From Octopus vulgaris (Eukaryota), in contig OX597815.1 of assembly GCA_951406725.2 (NCBI GenBank), positions 126,976,001 to 127,040,000 on the forward strand: 64,000 nucleotides of DNA, read 5' to 3'. Below the pieces are notes generated by a model that was not told the origin of the DNA, ran no database searches, and was given only the letters and a program-made list of their open reading frames with translations. The position numbers and the translations under genes were made by a program. Of this stretch, positions 3,310-57,916 are shown one piece after another. The number at the start of each line of letters is the position of its first letter. The first letter of the stretch is position 1.

Positions 3310-5690
3310 AACTTAGATAAACTTAGATATGTTTTGACCAAAGATTGGTCCAGGCAATGTCTAACTTAATAGCACCACCTGATAGGATTATCTAAATCTT
3401 TTTTAAGTCAAGTTTTGTGTTATCATGGTCCATTCATGTAGGGAGCTCTTGCTGAGTTAGTTGTATCCAGGTTTGGGTGGCTTATCTGGTATTCCTTGAA
3501 GAAATTTGTCCAGACTCCATTTAAAGGTGATGGGATCCTTTTCCTCTTTGATCAGTTTTGGGACAATGTTAAACAGGGCAGGGTCTGTTGAGGAAAAAAA
3601 ATTGTGTCACAGTGTACCTATATGTTGTGATCTTGAATTGGGCAGGGGACGTATGGCCCATGGTCCCACCCTTGGATGAACCTTGAAGCTAATATTCAGG
3701 TCGTTTGGGCAATGCTAGCAGTATATTCTCCCCATTGTACAAATGATGTACCACTTGCAGCAGCGCTGGACAGAGTAGAGTTTCAAGGCTTTAAGGCGGT
3801 CCCAGTAATCGAGATCAGTCATGCCCTTAATTTGTTTAGTGAATGCTCTTTAGGGTGATTCAATTTTCGAGATATTTTGTTTTGTATGGTGAGACCACAG
3901 AGCGCAGCAGTATTTGAGGTGTGGCTGTACAAAGGAGGAGAAAAGTGGAATGATGACACTTTGCTCTCTGGACCAGAAGGTTTTTAAGATCCAGGAGCTC
4001 ATCCTATGAGCTATATCGACCTTATTGTTGATGTGGGCACTCCAACTGAGATAGTTACCAACAATTACTCCTAGGTTTTTGATATTATTAGATGCTGTGA
4101 GTGGTTTCCCTGAAGGAAGGGAGTATGGATGTTTTAGTATAGTCTTTCATCCAAAATGCATCAGCTCAAATTTTCCCTCATTTAGTTGCATTTTGTTTTT
4201 GTCTGCCCATTGACTCATCACATATAAATCAGACTGGAGTTGAGTTCGGTCTTCTTTTTCATTGAGGATTTTCTGGAGCTTAGTGTCATCAGTAAATATT
4301 TTCACTTTGTGTTTTATGACTCTGGAAAGTCGTTTACATAGATTATAAAAAGGAGTAAGCCCAAGACAGTCCCCTGGTGGACACCACTGGTGACTCTTGC
4401 TGGGCTTGAGTGGACTCCATCGACCACAACATGTTGTGCTCTATTTGCCAGGAAATATTCAATCCAGTGTAGAAGTTTTCCATTTTTGAGAGTAAGATAT
4501 TATGGTCAACCCTGTTGAACGCTTTACTGAAGTCAAGATATATGACATCAGAGTTCAAACTTGTTCCCAAGGCTCTAAGTATATCCTCAATATGGTGTAA
4601 GAGCTGTGTCCCTGCCACAGCGAAAGCCATGCTGATTTGCATTTAAGAGTCTGTGGATCTCCAGGAAGCCAGCTATCATTGATCTTACCACTCTTTCAAA
4701 CATTTTAATGATGTGGGAGGTGAGTGAGATTGGACAATAGTTGACTGCAAGGGATCTGTTTCTCTGTTTGCAAACTGAGATGACAGACTGGAATAGGAGC
4801 TCTTTCGGTATATAACCTGAGTCTAAAGAATTTCTTCGGAGGTTGGTCAAAGGGACTGTAAGTTGGTATCTACATTCCTTCAGGAGACTAGTGGGGAATC
4901 TATCAGGGCCTACAGCAGAATAGTATTTCACTTCATTTATTGCTGCTATGATGTTTGAGGTAGTCAAGGTTATGTCCGAGATTTTATGTAGGGAATCAAC
5001 TGCATTCGCTTAGCCTTACATCAATATCAGTGAGGTCACTAAAGACAGGGCAGTATTGTTTCTGCAGCATTTCTGCCATTTCTTTAGCATCATGTTGGGG
5101 AATGCCGTTATCATCAATCAATGGACCAATGGGTGAAACAGTGGTTCTATACTTATTTGCGTAAGAGTAGAACACTTTTAGGTTCTGTTTGATGTTTTTG
5201 ATTACCCACTGTTCATCTGTATCTCTTTGATTTTCAATGGAGGTTTTCATGTCAGTCTGTAGATGAAGTTTTTCCAACTCCAGGTTTTCCATTGTTGTTG
5301 AAAGAGGATGTTGTATGTGGGAATATTTTAATTGGTTGATTTTTTTAATTGAGTCTTTTTGATGCGCCTAATGAGTGTTTTTTTTTTCTTTTTAGGGAGC
5401 CGTTTTCTGTTTGTGTCAGTGGATTTCATAGGAGCATGTTTTAAGCATGTATAGGTGATGATGTTCTCAAAGTGCTGCCATGTGGTCTCAATGTGAGTGG
5501 AAGTGAGAGTGAAGGACCAGTTGATGAAGGACAGATCCTTTCTGATTGCTCCCCAGTCTGCTTTGTGGAAGTTATGTTGTAAAATAAGTGCAGTGGAGTG
5601 GGATTGGCTGGTTTGGCTTTGATATGCCAGGAATTAAAATTGCAGAGTATCATGTCGTGGTCTGAGAGGAGAGTTTTTTCAACTGAAATA
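3310..5690 (-). pseudogene. CR1/Jockey-group LINE ORF2 remnant (RT)
   Basis: Fragments read: KNIKQNLKVFYSYAN, SAVGPDRF, NYCPISLTSHIIKMFERVV, NQHGFR, DVIYLDFSKAFNRVDH, FTDDTKL, RPHLKYCCALW. Multiple frameshifts. Confidence 0.9.
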
Positions 5691-8990: not shown

Positions 8991-9160
8991 CAGAAATACA
9001 GAAGCTCAATTAAAGATTACAAACCTCATTCAGGGATAGCAAAATCCTATGAAAGTACTGGTTAGTTACCTATACAAAGAATATTGAACATTACATTTAA
9101 TACTCAACTGCAAGGTAACTATATAGACTGTGGTTTATATATACTTATTTATAATAATAA

Positions 9161-9492
9161 TAAGATGAGTAATTAATAAATCATCATTTATTAATTAAAA
9201 TATTGACAAACAGCCCAAACAGCTGTTTCAATTCCAGATTTCAGAAAATTAATTAAATTGAAAATTATTTGAAAGTCGAATTTCTTCCGAGGTAGATAAA
9301 GATATTCAAAAATTAAACCTCATTTGTATATCTTTATCTACGTCTGAAGAGATCCGACTTTCAAATAATTTCTAATTTTATTAATTAATTAATCTTCTGA
9401 AGATCTAGAATTGAAACAGCTGTAAGGGATGTTTGGCAATTTTTAATTAATAAATAATAATTTATTAATTACCTCTCTATTTTCTCATCTTA
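9161..9492. repeat. Diverged fold-back (arms ~9161-9308 and ~9323-9492) within a (TA)n-flanked element (8991-9492)
   Basis: acagctgtttcaattccaga pairs with tctagaattgaaacagctgt; aattatttgaaagtcg pairs with cgactttcaaataatt; gtagataaagatat pairs with atatctttatctac. Confidence 0.9.
9392..9430 (+). ncRNA. Minimal type I hammerhead ribozyme-like motif
   Basis: atctt-CTGAAGA-tctagaatt-GAA-ACAGCTGT-A^agggat. Core intact, palindromic stem III, GUA site. Stems I and II are weak. Confidence 0.6.
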
Positions 9493-10020
9493 TATATATA
9501 TATATATATATTCAACCAGAGATCAAACTAGTTTCAATTTTTTTCATAAACCCTTGTATTCTATTAATATTAATACATTGACCCATAAGTAAAGGCATGG
9601 CTATGTAGCTAAGAAGTTTGCTTCACAACCATCTAGTTCTGGGTTCATTCCCATTGTATAGCACTTGTGTTGCACATTTCACAGCATTACCTGTCACCAA
9701 CAGATTGAAATAGTAACTCAGTGTTTAGACTTTTAGTTGACATTATGACAGATCACTCTACAATTTTGAAGAATAGAGGAACAAAAAAGAAAAATCTCTT
9801 ACTTGGAAATCAGATAAGGTTTAACAACAGGAAGAACATCCAACTAGAGATCTTATATTTAAAGAAATCTCCATCCAAACTATGGTAGCATGGAATAACA
9901 GATATAAAATGAACAAATGAATTAATTCCTTTTATCTTTTCAATTGCCCTTCCACTTATAACATATTTTGTCAGTCAGACAAACAAATGGACAGATAGAC
10001 AGATGAATAGTTAGTATATT

Positions 10021-15363: not shown

Positions 15364-15426
<63 letters not shown>

Positions 15427-15429
<3 letters not shown>

Positions 15430-15722
15430 TCATCATCATCATCCTCATTTAACGTCCGCTTTCCATGCTAGCATGGGTTGGACAGTTCAACTGGAGTCTG
15501 GGGAGCCCGAAGGCTGCACCAGGCCAGTCAGATCTGGCAGTGTTTCTACAGCTGGATGCCCTTCCTAACGCCAACCACTCCGAGAGTGTAGTGGGTGATT
15601 TTATGTGCCACCGACACAGGTGCCAGACGAGGCTGGCGAACGGCCACGCTCGGATGGTGTTTTTTTTTTTATGTGCCACCGACACAGGTGCCAGACGAGG
15701 CTGGCAGACGGCCACGCTCGGA
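15427..15722 (-). mobile_element. Young RTE-tail/SINE module with an internal duplication
   Basis: (CAT)n tail, CpG-retaining consensus module, and duplicated ttatgtgccaccgacacaggtgccagacgaggctggc. Confidence 0.85.
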
Positions 15723-15745
15723 TATATATATATATATATATATAA

Positions 15746-16102
15746 AACCAAGAAGAAAGCAACAAGAATGGATCGGTAGTTTAGTACAATTGTTTCATAC
15801 TATAAACATTTTATTTAAAGCTGCAAATATTACAGCAAATATAATGTCAAGTATTTTTCAGCTAAATTTCATATAGGTTTTCCAAACACCTTAGAGAGTG
15901 TAAATATCCTTCATAGAACTCACTCCTATAACTTCATAAGGACATTTACACTCTCTAAGATGTTTGGAAAAACTATATGAAATTTAGCTGAAGAATACTT
16001 GACATTATATTTGCTGTAATATTTGCAGCTTTAAATAAATGTTTATAGTATGAAACAATTGTACTAAACTACCGATCCATTCTTGTTGCTTTCTTCTTGG
16101 TT
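15746..16102. repeat. Fold-back with ~165 bp arms (15746-15911 / 15938-16102) between (TA)n tracts
   Basis: aaccaagaagaaagcaacaagaatggatcggtagtttagtacaattgtttcatac... is the reverse complement of ...gtatgaaacaattgtactaaactaccgatccattcttgttgctttcttcttggtt. Unique tail to ~16200. Confidence 0.96.
15983..16068 (+). ncRNA. Type I hammerhead ribozyme with extended stem II
   Basis: tttag-CTGAAGA-atact...agtat-GAA-ACAATTGT-A^ctaaa. Perfect stem I, stem II base, palindromic stem III, GUA site after 16063. Confidence 0.8.
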
Positions 16103-16202
16103 ATAATCACCCCACATAATTTTATGGTTAATACCATAAAAAATTCTGTTGCATCTAAGTTAAGTACCATATTCTTTTGAATCTAAATTGTTTTGCTGAA
16201 AT

Positions 16203-16240
<38 letters not shown>

Positions 16241-17496
16241 AATGGATAGATAGATAGATAGATAGATATACACACATGTATGTATACATATGTATGTGTA
16301 TATGTATGTATGTATATGTGTGCATGTGTGCGTGTGTATGCAAGTGTATGTGATCTCTATTTAGTTACTAGATGTTTTGTTTTGTCTGTATTTTTCGCAT
16401 TTATATAAATTATTACTTTACATTACAGTTCTTTTGGGGCATTCCTTTCACCAGCTACCAACTGATACCCTTCAGCAGTATTGGTATTGACTCTGATACC
16501 CTTCAGCAGTATTGGTATTGGACCCCCAATCCAGTGGTATTGAGCAGCTCTAATTTGGAGAGCAGCTCTAATTTGTAAGATTGTAAAGGATAAGAGAAAT
16601 ATGGAGTGGGAGATAAAGAGTTAAACATTAATGCTGAAGTTAAATGTAAATATTAACCCTTTTTGTTGCATCTGGGAAGCACGAACTCACATAAAAAATC
16701 TTGCACAAAATCCAAAACTGAAATTAAGATATATTGTCATGCATATATTTACCACTATGTAGATACCAAGGTATGATCTTCTGTGTGTTATATCTTCATT
16801 TTCCTCTTCTTTTCAGGTTTGGAATGAAGCTGAAAATTCTGGCTGTCTTTAGTTTTAAAATCAGGTTTTTTCAGCTGTGCCTTAATCAAATTCTTTGCTG
16901 CAATAGCTGTATGGCTTGGATCTTTCAAAGCTTTGCATCATAATAGAAGGCTGAGTATTTCAAAAACCAGACACATATGGAAAGCTTATATGTGTTGAGC
17001 TTTTCTGTATTTTGAAAATTAGTAAGTAATAACCTATCTCAACTTTCTCCTCAGTCATCTATATATATAATTTGGTAGTGTTGCTTTGGTTGGGATTAAA
17101 ATGATCAGCTTCTACTTGGTAGATTATGACTTTAGCATTTCAGTATTTGTTCAATATGTAAGCTTTAAGTTTTTGTGAGAATAGTTTTCTTCAGACGTAA
17201 TTGTAGGTTTGATCTAGTGGATATTTTACATGTTAAAAGTACAACTATAACTTCATTTGAGGGTGTGTCTGTGGAATAATTTGCTATATTTTTGGTTAAA
17301 GGGTAAATGCTTTCATATTAAGTTGAGAAAGATCTTAGCTATATTAGATTTTATATAAGCAGATTTAGCAAGACAAAATACATGATGCTTCATTGCCTTT
17401 ACTTTATATTATTAAACCTTGAGCTTGATGTGTTATGCATGTGTGTGTACAGAGAAAAGCGCATACATATATACACCAATATATGAGTGTATATAT

Positions 17497-18910
17497 CATC
17501 ATCATCATCATCACCGTTTAACATCCACTTTCCATGATAGCATGGGTTGGACGATTTTGACTGAAGGCTGGCAAACCAGATGGCTGCACCAGGCTCCAGT
17601 CTTGATCCGGCAGAGTTTCTACAGCTGGATGCCCTTCCTAACGCCAACCACTCCGAGAGTGTAGTGGGTGCTTTTTACATACCACTGGCATGGGGGCCAG
17701 TCAGGCGGTACTGGCAATGACCTCGCTCAAATCTTTTTACACATGCCACCAGCACAGGTGCCAGTGAAGCGACATTGGTAACGATCACGCTCAAATGGTG
17801 CCCTTTTACGTGCCACGGGTACGGCTGCTCTGGCAATGATCACGCTCAGATGGTATTCTTGGCACCCTACTAGCACAGACATAAGTGCCAGTAAGGCATC
17901 ACTGGTAACGATCATACTCAAATAGCCGCTCTGTCAATGATCACACTCATATGGTGCTCTCTGCACCCCGCTAGCACGGATGCCAGTCATCGAAATGATT
18001 TTGATTATTATTTCACTTGCCTCAACAGGTCTTCGCAAGCAAAGTTTAGTGACCAAAGAAGGAAAAGGTATGCATAAGCAGGCTGGTTATGCTCCTGGCA
18101 TAGGCCACGGGTTATGGTTTCATCTGGCTTGCCGGGTCTTCTCGGGCACAGCATATTTCCAAAAGTCTCGGTTGCTAGTCATTTCCTTGGTGAGGCCTAA
18201 AGTTCGAAGGTCGTGCTTCACCACTTCATCCCAGGTCTTCCTAGGTCTACCTCTTCCACAGGTTCCCTCAACCGCTAGGATGTGGCACTTTTTCACACAG
18301 CTATCCTCATCCATTCTCACCACATGACCATACCAGCGCAGTCGTCTCTCTTGCACACCACATCTAATGCTTCTTAGGTCCAACTTTTCTCTCAAGGTAC
18401 TTACACTCTGTTGATTATGCACACTGACATTACACATCCATCGGATCATACTGGCTTCATTCGTTGCGAGCTTATGCATTTCCTCAGCAGTCACAGCCCA
18501 TGTTTCACTGCCATGTAGCATGGCTGTTCGTACACATGCATCATACAGTCTACCTTTTACTCTGAACAAAAGGCCCTTTGTCACCAGCAGAGGTAAGAAC
18601 TCTCTGAACTTTGTCCAAGCTATTCTTATTCTAACAGCTACACTTTCAGTGCACTCTCTTCCGCTACTGACTTGGTCATCTATTTAATGGAATCTATCAA
18701 CTACTAGGTTTTCACCCTGGAATGTGGTGGAAGTTGTTCTCTGCACATTTTCAGTGTTTATCGCTCCCGAGCATCTGCTACATACAAAAACTATCTTCCC
18801 AGTTAGCCTTCCTTTGATATTACTGTACTTCTTACGTGTCCATAGCTTACACTGGGTACATCTTATAGAGTTTCTACCTACACCTCTACTACAAATCAAG
18901 CAGGGCCATG
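17497..18910 (-). mobile_element. 5'-truncated RTE LINE with complete 3' UTR
   Basis: WPCLICSRGVGRNSIRCTQCKLW..., KGRLYDACVRTAMLHGSETW...RRLRWYGHVVRM...GRGRPRKTW...EKTRQAR*, followed by the 3' UTR and (GAT)n. Confidence 0.93.
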
Positions 18911-27654: not shown

Positions 27655-27861
27655 CCAGAGTAAGTATATAAATGCAAAACAAGGTGGAAAATATAGTACT
27701 CGAATACCAGAGGTAGAATAATATGCTTTATTAAAAAGCAGCAAAAATATCACAAAAACTGTTACTCAGAGTTTCACATTCCCTTTCGTCCAACAAACAA
27801 GGATGTGAAACTCTGAGTAACAGTTTTTGTGATATTTTTGCTGTTTTTTAATAAAGTATAT
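27655..27861. repeat. Fold-back (27721-27782 / 27801-27861) in (TA)n, with hammerhead half-motifs
   Basis: The arms are reverse complements. Both contain GAA-ACTC(T)GAGT-A^acag. The minus strand of the left arm keeps a partial core, gacga-aagggaatgt-gaaac. Confidence 0.88.
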
Positions 27862-37591: not shown

Positions 37592-38573
37592 GTATGTATG
37601 TATGTATGTATGTATGTATGTATGTATGTATGTATGTATGTATGTATGCATGTATGTATGTGTATGTGTCTATGTATGTATGTATGTATTTATGCATGCA
37701 TGCATGCATGTATGTATGTATGTATTTATGTATGTATGTATGTATGTATGTATGTATGTATGTATGTATGTATGTATGTATGTATGTATGTATGTATGTA
37801 TGTATGTATGTATGTATTGCTTTGTTGGGATAAAAATATAGAAATATGAATCATGAAATCTGAATACTAAAATGCATCCAGGCCAATAATTTACCATTTC
37901 TATCAACTCATACTTCTTCACAATCCTATAAGGCAGTTTTATGCATTTTGTTAACTTGCTCAAAATTGCTTTGAAATCTCCCTCAATACATGCTTATCTC
38001 ATATGCATTTTAAAAACTTCTGGGCTTAACTAAACCAAAAATCTCAAAATTGATGGATGGTTACAGCTAGAATGCCTTTGATTATACATTAGCTCAATCA
38101 GAGCTGACCTGGGTCTAAACATCATCATCATTTAATGTCCACCATCTATGCTGATATGGGTGGGATGGTTTGGCAGGAGCCAGTCAGGCAGAAGCTTGCA
38201 CCAGACTTCTGTGATTGTTTTGGCAGGATTTTCACAGCTGAATACCCATCCTAACCCCAGCCACTCAGCTGAGTAGTTTTTATGTGGCACAAGCACAGAT
38301 GAAGTCAGTATTGGCAAAGTTTTTACTGCTGGATGCCCTTCCAAACACCAACCTCTTTACACTGTGGATATTTTTTAAGTTGCACCTGCACTGACAGGGT
38401 CACTAAGTACTTGCAAGACAAAAAGATAAAAGACAATTTTGTGAGGGAAGGGACATTGGAGGAAGTGATCTTGTGTCAGATGAGGAAAGGTTATAGTAAG
38501 ACAGAGAGAGAGAAAAACAGGTGTCTTGCTGTAGAGGAGGTACAAGGGTATCCAGCCAGATAATTGTCACTCT

Positions 38574-39122
38574 ATGTGACTAGGGTGTTAAAAACACCTA
38601 TATTGCTAGAAATAAGAGCTAAAATTCTCTAATGCTGTGGATAATGATCATGAATGAAAACATATACGTTAACAGGGACCATAATTGTCCGAAAAATGCT
38701 GACTGAGAATTCTTAAGACTGACATCAGTCTGGGCAATGTAGGTGTATTTTAACTCCCTAGTCACATTGAGTAACAATTATAATTCTCCTTTTTGGTGAA
38801 ACATTGCAACCAGTTGTTTATATTAATTTTGTGTATACACATTAGCGAAGCACTAAGTCATCCATTAATTTGATGACAGAAACATATATACTAATAGAGA
38901 AATGGGTCTGGAAAAGGCTGAATGCTGAACTGGCTTAACTGATGATGGCAACGGAAATTGCCAAAACTGACGTCAGTCTTAAGAAATCTCAGTCGGCATT
39001 TTTTCAGACAATTATGGTGCCTGTTAGTGTATGTTTTCATTTATGTGCATTAACTACAGCATTAGAGCATTTTAGCTCTTATTTCCAGCAATGTAGGTGT
39101 TTTTAAAACTCTAGTCACATTT
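38574..39122. repeat. Fold-back (38574-38729 / 38966-39120) with an internal direct repeat of the terminus, abutting (TA)n
   Basis: atgtgactag...aaaacacctatattgctagaaataagagctaaaa pairs with ttttagctcttatttccagcaatgtaggtgtttt...ctagtcacat. 38734-38768 repeats 39088-39121 directly. Confidence 0.92.
38934..38983 (+). ncRNA. Type I hammerhead ribozyme motif (G12 mutated)
   Basis: cttaa-CTGATGA-t-ggcaa(cggaaa)ttgcc-AAA-ACTGACGTCAGT-C^ttaag. All three stems are perfect and the site is GUC. The GAAA is changed to AAAA at a CpG. Confidence 0.8.
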
Positions 39123-39139
39123 AATGACATTTATATATA

Positions 39140-40849: not shown

Positions 40850-41338
40850 TGTCTTTGCTCAGTTACTTTTAATGTTTTTCCTTTTACACATTGCTTCCAT
40901 GTTTGGAATATTTCTTCTGACTCTTCAGCTGATTCAACTCTGATAACTAGATCATCAGCATACAGAAGTTTGCATGAACAACAAATCTTGAACTCTTGAA
41001 CTCTTCATAGAGAGATATAAACAGAAAAGGATTGTAAGCAGAACCTTGATGAACACCTACCTGCATGCTAACTTAGTCACTAAGCTCATTGATAACTGTC
41101 ACTTTGCTGATTGTACCTCTGTAGTGCATGGCTTGACCAGCATCTTCAAGTCATTCATCTACACCCAGTTTTCTTAACTTCTTAACTACAAGTTAAGAAA
41201 ACTGAGTGTAGATGAATGGCTTGAAGATGCTGGTCAAGCCATGTACTACAGAGGTACAATCAGCAAAGGGACAGTTATCAATGAGCTTAGGGACTAAGTG
41301 TGCAGGTAGGTGTTCATCAAGGTTCTGCTTGCAATCCT
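40850..41338 (-). mobile_element. RTE RT fragment whose 5' part is duplicated as a hairpin (41028-41180 / 41190-41338)
   Basis: Minus strand LRKLGVDE..., QVGVHQGS, LLYADD. The arms are reverse complements with a 9-nt loop. Confidence 0.88.
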
Positions 41339-49176: not shown

Positions 49177-49794
49177 ATAAATAATTCACTGCTGTAAACA
49201 GCAACAGTTCTTTAACATGAATTTCTAACAAAAGCAAAAAGGTACAAAGCTATAAATTTTTTGCAGAGTGATATAGTTAAATATATGGTGTTTATTTTAT
49301 CAAGCCTGGGAGGAGCAGTTCAGTGAAATTACCGTGTTTTTCATCTGGTTACAGCACACTGAGTTTATCTTTATTTGAGTGTAGCTTAGAGATGTGTATT
49401 CTTTACTCTACATACTTTCTTATATGTTATATGTTATATGAGTTAGGTCTTAAACCAAAGCATGTTCAGAGACTTCTTTAGTAAATATATGTGCTTGCAT
49501 AGAAACAGCATTTGTTTATGACTCTGGAAAAAAATGCTAGCTTTTGTGAAATCATCTTCATAATGTGTTATAGCCATGGCATCTCTAAGCTACACGCAGA
49601 TAAGGATAAACTCAGTACTGTAACCAGATGAAAAACATGGTAATTTTACTGAACTCCTCCTCCCAGGGTTGATAAAATAAACACCATATATTTAACTATA
49701 TCACTCCTCGAAAATTTATAGCTTTGTATCTTTTTGCTTTTGTTAGAAACTCATGTTACAGAACTGTTGCTGTTTACAGCAGTGAATTATTTAT
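49177..49794. repeat. Fold-back with ~217 bp arms (49177-49394 / 49580-49794)
   Basis: ataaataattcactgctgtaaacagcaacagttc...gtagcttagagatg pairs with catctctaagctacac...gaactgttgctgtttacagcagtgaattatttat. Confidence 0.93.
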
Positions 49795-53191: not shown

Positions 53192-54317
53192 TATGTTTGT
53201 ACAAGTTGGCTCCAAGTCTCACCCAGAGACCTCAAGAGACAACAGGTTGGAAGTTCACGTTGTTGTTATGCCTAGTGTGGCATATATTTGGGGGGTTTTT
53301 TTCTCTTTTCTTCTTTTTTTTGGTGTTGTACTAGTGAATGTCTAATAAATAAATTTTAAAAAAAAATTTTTTTTTAAAGTTTGTTTTAAACCTTGGAATT
53401 ACATAGAGAGTATTTTGCGTAGGATATGAGCAGTTCCCATGAGCACTATCTTCTGAATTTCTGCCATTTTGGGGTTTCCTGGTATCTGAGTTAGGTAGCA
53501 ATCAGTCCCTTTCGCTATCATTCCCAGGGCACCTATGACAACAGGTATTGTTTTAGTCTTCAGCTTCCACATTTTGCTGATTTCTATTTCAAGATCTTTA
53601 TATTTGCTCAGTTTTTGGTAGGTCTTGACAGATACGTTTATATTGATTGGGACAGTCATATCAATGAGGAGGCATGTTCTTTGTCTGAAGTCTTTCAATA
53701 TGATGTGTGGCCTATTTGCATCTATCTTTCTGTCAGTTTGAATGGTGAAGTTCCAGAGGAGTAAGATGTGGTCATTTTCAAGTACTGGAGGTGGCTTGTG
53801 TTCCCACCAGTTTTTTTCATGGGGCAAATCCAGGGTTTTGCAAATTACCCAGTGAATATATTGTGCAGCTCTATCATGCCTGTTGAGATACTCTGTAGGC
53901 GCTAGAAGACTGCATTTGGAGACAACATGATCAATGGTTTCATTTTGTTGTCGACATACACGACATGTTGGGCTACTGCTATTCTTTAATATGTTGGCCT
54001 GGTAGTTTCTTGTTGGTAGGCATTGATCTTGAGCTGCTATGATAAACCCTTCTGTTTCAGATTTTAAGCCAGAGGCCATTAGCCATTGATGGGTCAGGGC
54101 TTTGTCAATATCTGCATTATTCGCTCTCTTTGGGTATTTGCCATAGAGAGGTTTTTCTTGCCATTTATTATTCAGAATATCTAAGGCCGCAGTTTTGGCA
54201 CGGGTTTTCATGCGCTTAGCTTTTTCTGTTCTTGTTTCTTGTATGTCTATCTCTAATTCCGAAATTTGTTGTATTCGGAATTCACTTAGATATTCTTTTG
54301 CCTGTTTTGTTACTGAG

Positions 54318-54320
<3 letters not shown>
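53191..54320 (-). mobile_element. 5'-truncated R4/Dong-clade RLE retrotransposon, copy 1
   Basis: About 307 uninterrupted codons: CCHC finger CRVC..ETIDHVVSKC, YLNRHD, RP(H)IILKD..LIDMTVP..K..KY (PD..D/ExK nuclease), VIGALG. Has a 3' UTR and (TAA)n flanks. Confidence 0.93.
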
Positions 54321-54397
<77 letters not shown>

Positions 54398-54398
54398 T

Positions 54399-55068
54399 AT
54401 GTTTGACTTTTGCTTTACATTAGTACAAGTTGGCTCCAAGTCTCACCCAGAGACCTCAAGAGACAACAAGTTGGAAGTTCATATTGGTGTTATGCTTAGG
54501 GTGCCATGTATTTTGTTTTGTACATAGTGTTGTTCTAGAGAATGTTTAAGAAATCATAAAAAAATTATATTTGTTTTAAAACTTGAGATTACATAGAAAG
54601 TATTTTGCGTAGGATATGAGCAGTTCCCATGAGCACTATCTTTTGAATTTCTGCCATTTTGGGGTTTCCTGGTATCTGAGCTAGGTAGCAATCAGCCCCT
54701 TTTGCTATCATTCCCAGAGCACCTTGACAACAGGTATTGTTTTAGTCTTCAGGTTCCACATTTTGCTAATTTCTATTTCAAGATCTTTATATATGCTATG
54801 TTTTTGGTAGGTCTTGACAGATACGTTTATATTGATTGGGACAGTCATATCAATGAGGAGGCATGATTTTTGTCTGAAGCCTTTCAATATGATGTCTGGC
54901 CTATTCACATCTATCTTTCTGTCAGTTTTAATGGTGAAGTTCCAGAGGAGTGAGATGTGATTATTTTCAAGCACTGGAGGTGGTTTGTGTTCCCACCAGT
55001 TTTTATCATGGGGCAAGTCCAGGCTTTTGCAAATTACCCAGTGAATATATTGTACAGCTCTATCATGC
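54399..55068 (-). mobile_element. 5'-truncated R4/Dong-clade RLE retrotransposon, copy 2
   Basis: Highly similar to 53191-53880. Starts at RHD, keeps RPDIIL, and has a frameshift near IPVV. Confidence 0.92.
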
Positions 55069-55929
55069 CTATTATTGTTGTTGTTGTTGTTGTTGTTGTT
55101 GTTACTGTACTTATCTTACATTATACTGGCACAGCTTGGTACAAACCCATAAAACTGCTCTTGCAAGTCAGTATCATTAGGCTGTAGCCAACATAATAAA
55201 ATCAGATCTCCTATATGCTTACTCAAACATGTTTTGTGTAAACAAATCTAAAGGATATATATATGCATATGTATGCATGCATGTATCTGCATGTGTGTAT
55301 GTATGTATGTATGTATGTATGTATGTATGTATGTATGTATGTATGTATGTATGTATGTATGTATGTATGTATGTATGTATGTATGCATGAGTGTGTGTGT
55401 GTGTGTATGAGTGTACACCCACACAGACACAGTGTGGCTGTGTGGTAATGAGTTTACTTTATGAAATCCTGTTTTGAGGTTTAATCTGACTGCTTGTAAC
55501 CTTGGACAAGTGTCTTCTACTATAGCCCTGATTCAACCAAAATCTTTAAGTAATTTGATAGGCAAAAACCGTTAGAAGTCTGTCATGTATGTATACACAC
55601 AGACACAAGCACATGCATATATCTTTTCTTTTACTTGTTTCAGTCATTTGACTGCGACCATGCTGGAGCACTGCATTTAGCCAAACAAATCGACCCCAGG
55701 ACTTATTCTTTGTAAGCCTAGTACTTATTCTATTGGTCTCTTTTGCTGAATTGCTAAGTTACGGGAACATAAAAACACCAACATCGGTTGTCAAGCGATG
55801 ATGGGGGGGGGGAACAAACACAGACACACACACAAATATATACATATTCCCTCCACCAAAACCACTCACAAGGGTTTGGTTGGCTCGAGGCTATAATAGA
55901 AGTTTTTTTTAACAATTTTTATCACAAAA

Positions 55930-57758: not shown

Positions 57759-57916
57759 TCTTACCACTAAGAAATATTCCCAAGAAAAATTTAGCAAACA
57801 ACCAAAACGTAATTGAGCAAGACAAAAGAAAAGCAATAAAAATTTTCTTTTGTCTTGCTCGATTACGTTTTGGTTGTTTGCTAAATTTTTCTTGAGAACA
57901 TTTCTTAGTGGTAAGA
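57759..57916. repeat. Hairpin (57759-57832 / 57843-57916) with a unique tail 57590-57758 reaching (TA)n
   Basis: tcttaccactaagaaat...gagcaagacaaaagaaaa pairs with ttttcttttgtcttgctc...atttcttagtggtaaga. Loop is 10 nt. Confidence 0.93.

Follow-up and report, generated by a model that had tools for sequence, protein, structure and literature searches.

The fold-back at positions 15746 to 16202 of the window, the whole 64,000-nt stretch of Octopus vulgaris DNA that we analysed (assembly GCA_951406725.2, contig OX597815.1, forward-strand positions 126,976,001 to 127,040,000), is probably (about 0.8) a 5'-truncated, head-to-head copy of a Penelope-like element (PLE) with Hydra-clade motifs. It stands in (TA)n, likely arose when two sites of the element RNA served for priming and the products were joined by microhomology, and carries a conserved hammerhead predicted to act only as a dimer. 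We observed the arm boundaries, the TA flanks, a link to a GIY-YIG ORF, a tail that corresponds to the 5'UTR, the pairing of one short with one tailed arm, covariation of the stems, and a G8A change private to the locus. We regard the copy itself as ordinary debris and most likely inert, a relic in neutral decay, because it has one sense ribozyme per strand and its arms would form a 166-bp duplex.

Architecture of the fold-back locus

The insertion is preceded by a (TA)n run (15722-15745) and begins with an inverted short arm on the minus strand (15746-15911), a 5'-truncated part of a PLE pseudo-LTR that terminates at site A, approximately at +39 to +41 relative to the predicted cut; 98 of the 113 scored short ends are likewise followed by a TA run. 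A 2-nt overlap (TT, 15910-15911; gap of -2) joins this arm to the sense arm on the plus strand (15910-16102), and overlaps of 1-7 nt occur at 24 of the 42 tight junctions. The sense arm represents the end of the PLE 3'UTR or pseudo-LTR, which in loci L056-L059 is continuous with a GIY-YIG ORF approximately 1.0 kb upstream. It is followed by a tail of approximately 100 nt (16103-16202, plus strand) that ends at site B, is found after the plus arm only, and is homologous to the 5'UTR preceding the ORF in full-length relatives; the sequence-only reading of this DNA had made no mention of it. A second (TA)n run (16203-16214) forms the right flank. We adopted this order because the arm ends, the tail and the flanks match those of family copies. 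The left arm pairs with 15938-16102 to give a 166-bp fold-back interrupted by four substitutions and one 1-nt indel, with a unique loop at 15912-15937 between the two paired segments.

An abundant unrelated repeat, which starts with (CAT)n and occupies 15426-15721, adjoins the left TA run and is present in at least nine other places. LINE reverse transcriptase remnants lie at 4587-5367, 18120-18683 and 53399-55115 of the window.

The sense arm contains a type I hammerhead motif (15983-16068, plus strand) with a 5-bp stem I (TTTAG at 15983-15987 and CTAAA at 16064-16068), the core segments CTGAAGA (15988-15994), GAAA (16052-16055) and GUA (16061-16063), and a predicted cut after A16063. The intact core, perfect stem I and GUA site that had been claimed for this copy were all read at these positions. 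Its description as the best preserved holds inside the window but not beyond it, where L002 and L003 are nearer to the family than either arm; the plus arm carries four private changes and the minus arm two. Other copies swamped the contigs of four runs aligned to 15440-16190 (90% likeness), and the private letters at 15943 and 15972 were absent from all of them.

Family membership and clade

A 161-nt query gave 43 matches at 93-100% identity (40 scored of 1367 candidates). The 5' ends of family copies vary, and their 3' ends fall into two kinds, each entering (TA)n; the short one lies approximately 40 nt past the cut site and the long one approximately 100 nt further. In L022 and L056-L059, which hold partial ORFs of the subfamily to which the window locus belongs, the pseudo-LTR repeat continues upstream into the 3' end of the GIY-YIG ORF, whose stop codon stands approximately 1.0 kb before the cut site. 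The Pfam GIY-YIG match of the L022 ORF was weak and below the cut-off (E 0.009), and its protein contains CNCRIKSKC, CQLC and CIH. When the L022 protein was used as the query, 150 of 16,982 candidates were scored, among them full ORFs of approximately 980 codons from a related family that is 67% identical to the window subfamily in EN and 76-77% in the pseudo-LTR. The protein P0001 of this related family shows RWK, ADKT, QFDINSYY, YRDD, CKCRIKSKC, CQLC and CVH but no CCHH (the RT motifs were located by eye), and it resembles Hydra-1_Obim, also by eye; Pfam gave no match on three long ORFs. In L051, L052, L053, L055 and L060, the 5' pseudo-LTR extends across the tail and reaches the ATG.

The Hydra clade of PLEs with a C-terminal EN includes Hydra-1_Obim and Penelope-13_HM, the latter carrying a 5'-truncated copy in inverted orientation (Craig et al. 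2021, PMC8557442). Its members share RWK and DKT, a CxCX5C linker, CxxC and CxH near the end, the lack of CCHH, and (TA)n targets, together with a type I hammerhead near the 3' end, a self-complementary stem III of approximately 4 bp, and an inverted 5' copy (PMC8557442). We found the linker, CxxC and CxH without CCHH in L022 and P0001, RWK and DKT in P0001 of the related family, insertion into (TA)n, and the layout of EN+ Penelope-like elements, that is, direct or inverted pseudo-LTRs with a hammerhead and a tail at one end. Judged by these protein motifs, the element is an EN+ PLE, most likely of the Hydra clade. It departs from the published description in three respects: Hydra-clade units are generally shorter than 3 kb, whereas L051 measures approximately 4.65 kb from hammerhead to hammerhead and has an Asn-rich insert; their tails are 30-40 bp, in contrast to approximately 100 nt here and about 115 nt in the L051 family (PMC8557442); and their listed hammerheads have a stem II of 3-7 bp with loops of 3-10 nt, compared with 57-60 nt here (PMC8557442 File S2). 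The Neptune clade, our first candidate, was dropped against the Hydra criteria (PMC8557442 section 11).

Loci L051-L055 and L063 belong to a related family that is young, its copies being nearly identical; they have open ORFs of approximately 956 aa with a long Asn-rich insert and a 3'UTR of approximately 1.5 kb, and their stem III, ACGATTGT, would dimerise via G-U pairs.

Insertion ends and proposed mechanism

The loci that we compared were best matches and pattern matches, 11 of which had been chosen as close pairs and none by end type, and they are not a random sample. Among the 158 loci, 55 of 60 head-to-head pairs combined one short and one tailed arm, and in 52 of these 55 the arms lay within 400 nt. 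The pair in L033 is cut by the locus edge, and L058, which is the same place, shows the tail; three other non-conforming pairs are internal 5' pseudo-LTRs of full-length composites, the outer ends of which are short plus tailed in L051 and L052 and ambiguous in L053; L038 is a short-plus-short pair. The long ends (n = 93) comprised 47 with the terminal motif and a TA run, four with the motif and no TA run, and 42 without the motif, which fell outside scoring.

The arms of a pair resembled each other more than they resembled other arms: in the 40 pairs whose overlap was 60 nt or more, partners differed by 4.1% on average and the median other arm by 11.7%, and the partner stood at the 3rd percentile of distance (median, among 55-165 arms). 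Rare variants common to both arms numbered 33, eight of which were present in no other arm. Short-plus-tailed pairs with shared rare variants suggest that both target strands were primed from two fixed sites on one RNA. Since a further 195 rare variants were confined to one arm, and the average distance to the nearest other arm (2.8%) was smaller than that to the partner (4.1%), we infer rather than observe that the arms came from the same RNA. Conversion between arms, or sources of the same era, could also give shared variants.

These one-arm variants are what would be expected if the arms had been copied, at the same two start sites, from separate RNAs of the same PLE carried by an enzyme dimer, with later conversion; some pairs are 7-10% apart, and an outside arm is often nearer than the partner. 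We regard such an origin as rather unlikely, given the low percentile at which the partner stands among 55-165 arms and the several pairs that are identical or carry variants found nowhere else; the strict short-plus-tailed rule is also easier to obtain when one RNA offers both sites.

It is less likely still that one cDNA or antisense RNA of the PLE folded back and copied itself, as suggested for rotifer Penelope elements, although self-priming from junction palindromes has been proposed (PMC3846280) and would account for tight junctions with overlaps of 1-7 nt and for rare variants common to the arms of one locus, including a G8A in both arms of L024. A fold-back copy must stay within its template, yet the short arm reached further 5' in 22 of the 52 close pairs and the tailed arm in 25 (equal in five), and two pairs had no overlap. 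Because either arm can extend further 5', neither is a fold-back copy of the other, and the restriction of the tail to one arm also speaks against self-priming.

In the mechanism that we favour, with two sites on one RNA, site A (+40) and site B (+138) would be the starts of reverse transcription. Both sites precede TA-like letters in the element, and because such letters stand after each of them, the 3' end of (TA)n could anneal at both. The two nicked target strands would each be primed at one of these fixed sites on the element RNA, both cDNAs would likely be copied from the same uncut RNA, and the two short cDNAs would be joined by microhomology. In a full element, the hammerheads of the 5' and 3' pseudo-LTRs would pair through the palindrome of stem III. 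We found no copies starting at the cut site: none of 153 had a non-A base before it, and 30 of the 30 inspected keep GTA, so cut 5' ends were not seen as insertion ends. A few 5' ends lie 3-10 nt upstream of the cut, in the palindrome (L075-L077 and L020), and those of L093 and L113 are in or beside it. Approximately ten tailed arms start at +15 to +27 and stop 14-26 nt past site A.

Two internal starts of reverse transcription, extension of both strands, and insertion that does not need cleavage have been reported in vitro for Poseidon_Ac (Frangieh et al. 2024, PMC11167929). The octopus element shares its AT-rich targets and would share two further traits: in Poseidon_Ac, the tail is set by a pair of starts located downstream of the hammerhead, and each target strand is cut and then extended. 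Poseidon_Ac belongs to another clade, however, and its hammerhead overlaps the ORF start and its sites are adjacent, without homology to the cut DNA (PMC11167929); the octopus sites are in the 5'UTR, approximately 100 nt apart, and before TA-like letters at which the target would anneal. Short-plus-tailed pairing and shared variants are not quantified in the available parts of PMC11167929, and the near-strict rule, the spacing of approximately 100 nt and the shared arm variants were not found in the literature searched.

The mirror copy

The left arm carries a mirror copy of the hammerhead (15780-15866, minus strand) which, as the sequence-only reading had stated, reads CTGAAAA; the T at 15856 is one of the four arm substitutions. 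The C3-G8 pair has an established role in the hammerhead core, and the G8A change should for this reason inactivate the mirror copy, as had been proposed. A G8C change abolishes a PLE hammerhead (PMC11167929). Within a 26-nt context, G8 was present in 115 of 116 copies, the window locus being the only one with another base. Damage was found in 17 of the 147 arms with the whole core (one place, L035/L056, is counted twice). The 28 pairs with both cores comprised 19 with both intact, eight with one damaged (the short arm in four and the tailed arm in four) and one with both damaged (L024), where independent decay predicts about 19, eight and one. The data gave no support for reading significance into the disabled antisense twin, since the G8A is private to the locus and core damage is unbiased between the arms, as independence predicts. 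The change is likely a random mutation, that is, neutral decay. Locus L024 (G000:C3:720585-721172) has G8A in both arms, which reflects either mobilisation of a template with a dead ribozyme or conversion between the arms.

The proposal that the duplex would compete with the ribozyme fold in a read-through transcript agreed with computed folding (-249.4 versus -139.2 kcal/mol), in which forcing the ribozyme inside the fold-back cost 110 kcal/mol. A long duplex, if transcribed, would be an ADAR substrate. A host-selected switch could be built from these elements: a read-through transcript would contain a working ribozyme with its antisense twin disabled, and the duplex would regulate cleavage or draw A-to-I editing. 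The G8A is real and lies in the core, and the duplex would block the ribozyme fold; we nevertheless consider a switch very improbable. The twin is antisense on the plus transcript, so its catalytic state is irrelevant, the unbiased core damage in 17 of 147 arms fits independence, and the plus arm has more private changes than the minus arm. No host domain or exon was recognised among the 67 ORFs scanned of 215 candidates, which gave a single retroelement match. At 16800-17030, a polypyrimidine tract, a CAG at approximately 16817 and a GTAAGT at approximately 17022 form a candidate exon-like arrangement on the plus strand without an open frame.

Conservation and predicted dimerisation of the hammerhead

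The core (CUGANGA, GAAA and UH) was invariant in 16 of 16 aligned relatives, which had been chosen for having it. Pair 10.1-11.1, for which G10.1-C11.1 is typical of PLE motifs, is A-U at the window locus and was GC in five, AU in four, GU in two and other in five of these relatives. The 16 relatives used for the covariation analysis had been selected to be diverse and to have an intact core, and relatedness is not taken into account by the shuffle control; 84% of cells were paired, against 75.8 ± 1.2% after shuffling, and double-change cells numbered 55 as opposed to 24 (0 of 500 shuffles), while slid controls paired at 28-45%. Double changes occurred in three of five pairs of stem I, three of five of basal stem II, three of seven of the apical helix and one of four of stem III. 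Support was good (86-93% paired) for stem I, the base of stem II and the apical hairpin, and weak (60-65%) for the middle helices of stem II.

The strand of stem III at 16055-16062 (plus strand), ACAATTGT, is a perfect palindrome that the sequence-only reading did not include, and it is predicted to pair between two ribozymes. Of 30 loci drawn from many families, 26 have a fully self-complementary 8-mer at this place, the outer two pairs being fixed by the search pattern. Pair 15.3-16.3 switches among AU, GC and GU in the relatives, which fits an intermolecular helix, because in the monomer this pair closes a loop of only 2 nt. Given the covariation among relatives in stems I and II and in the stem III palindrome, the hammerhead is a conserved motif of the family that would likely cut only as a dimer.

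Computed folding gave a non-catalytic hairpin as the minimum free energy (MFE) structure of the monomer (-15.5 versus -13.3 kcal/mol for the hammerhead, a preference of 2.2 kcal/mol) and favoured the double hammerhead (-37.8) over two monomers (-31.0); the MFE structure of the two-copy cofold was a non-catalytic dimer (-41.5), below the double hammerhead. The 5' strand of stem II (AUACU, 15995-15999) resembles the cut site (GUACU, 16061-16065), and therefore both compete for AGUAU. The resulting hairpin, which is inhibitory to the hammerhead, is the MFE structure in several relatives, and this competition is possibly a built-in off state of the hammerhead.

Rfam returned no matches at gathering score in the whole 64-kb window, and around the locus at E<=10 it returned no hammerhead-named family but only RAGATH-6 (E 0.48, minus strand) and plant and animal microRNA hairpin models, the latter all far under their gathering scores. 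With 43 matches at 93-100% identity and stems that covary, the motif is not due to chance; by sequence and covariation it is a real type I PLE hammerhead motif, with ribozyme activity predicted. The microRNA models might be taken to mean a microRNA-like hairpin, or a miniature DNA transposon, with a fortuitous likeness to a hammerhead, but this has a negligible probability and is ruled out by the ORF link and the covariation, as the arms are unequal, have variable 5' truncation points and are continuous with the PLE ORF, and pattern matches far outnumber the control (17,063 versus 176).

Length and frequency of stem II

Stem II (15995-16051, plus strand) is 57 nt long and consists of a 5-bp base, including A10.1-U11.1, and a 47-nt extension that holds gctgtaatatttgcagc at 16013-16029 and ends in a GCUGUAA/UUGCAGC hairpin. 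The reported length and sequence of the extension were confirmed, but its predicted fold is a single unbranched, bulged hairpin and not a branched one. The stem had also been called unusual; it is far longer than in published metazoan PLE examples, but it is common to the family and to most such motifs in the genome.

We searched the 2.8-Gb genome for CTGANGA-N-GAAACNNNNGTA with a variable spacer N, using the reversed pattern as a control. Spacers of 8-30, 31-53, 54-62 and 63-85 nt gave 8,230, 8,318, 17,063 and 7,247 matches, respectively, versus 505, 358, 176 and 365 in the control. Over spacers of 8-85 nt, there were 40,858 matches versus 1,404, and 80% had a stem II longer than 30 nt; some are nested or chance matches, as no structure filter was applied, and other stem III lengths and cut triplets were left out. 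A match to P0001 was present in one of 30 long-stem loci from many families (1.5-kb flanks). The approximately 40,900 hammerhead-pattern matches, the approximately 80% with a long stem II, and a window motif missed by Rfam go beyond what was found in print; our literature search turned up no description of cephalopod PLE hammerheads with a long stem II, although the supplements of PMC4209133 may show a longer helix II. Searches with a capped stem II spacer, such as the 7-17 nt of the core search in PMC8557442, would miss most of the motifs here, and hammerhead counts and claims of hammerhead-free PLE clades may therefore need a second look. The Naiads (Naiad_Ovul, 'HHR_half_core'), which are said to be without hammerheads, show in eight cases the two halves of the core with 35-50 nt between them (PMC8557442 File S1), and long-stem-II motifs might account for some of these.

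A second, older fold-back in (TA)n (9136-9508, 78% arm identity) holds a long-stem-II hammerhead of another family, with its core at 9344 and GAAACAGCTGTA at 9413, like L161 and L183. The inverted repeat at 27721-27861, which adjoins (TA)n, retains just a 3' half-hammerhead (GAAACTCTGAGTA) in each arm, and those at 898-1089, 57759-57916, 41028-41338, 49177-49794 and 38560-39134 have no complete core.

Relation to known elements

The window fold-back is the usual 5' inversion of a PLE and thus a known kind of element; inverted copies and one-sided tails of PLEs have already been described (PMC8557442 and PMC3846280), as have opposite-strand hammerhead pairs 100-700 bp apart (Cervera and de la Pena 2014, PMC4209133). 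Minimal PLE hammerheads are type I, with a helix I of 4-5 bp, a palindromic helix III and a predicted dimer, and are mostly found in truncated copies (PMC4209133). The window motif would fit these dimer-type, weakly active hammerheads, from which its subfamily differs by A10.1-U11.1, by the lack of an extra base after A9, and by a stem II of approximately 23 bp with bulges, compared with a 'larger than usual' helix II of 7-8 bp (PMC4209133). A long, roughly 50-nt stem II marked as non-canonical occurs in PLE-X1_sMoe and PLE-X1_sTam of spike mosses (PMC8557442 File S2); these are single, EN-minus, 28S-targeting plant families, unlike the tens of thousands of motifs here. Type I hammerheads also occur in non-LTR retrozymes, which are short repeats related to PLEs and without coding sequence (PMC7229834; bioRxiv 10.64898/2026.07.22.740005), but these are head-to-tail tandem units, each with a hammerhead (PMC7229834), whereas the window locus is a head-to-head truncation whose arms are linked to a coding element. 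The axolotl, with 126,247 raw hammerhead matches, has more than we found here (PMC7229834).

What is new at this locus is modest: a variant of a known element type with a long stem II and a long tail, at an otherwise ordinary site. Taken together, our results may point to two things at once, a joint reading that we hold tentatively and at somewhat less than even odds: that the genome has approximately 40,000 PLE hammerheads of the dimer type in which stem II forms a module of free length (8-85 nt, with a peak at 54-62 nt) missed by standard descriptors and Rfam, and that Hydra-clade elements use fixed-site twin priming, in which one enzyme dimer would prime both (TA)n strands at two TA-like sites of one uncut RNA that are separated by approximately 100 nt. 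The short-plus-tailed rule, the shared arm variants and the intact-looking young relative (L051-L055) make this one-RNA, two-site model testable, and it bears on how PLEs build inverted insertions with a single tail. If the joint reading is true, fixed-site twin priming would explain the inverted structure of PLEs with one tail, and it would seed thousands of long duplexes in an animal rich in RNA editing.
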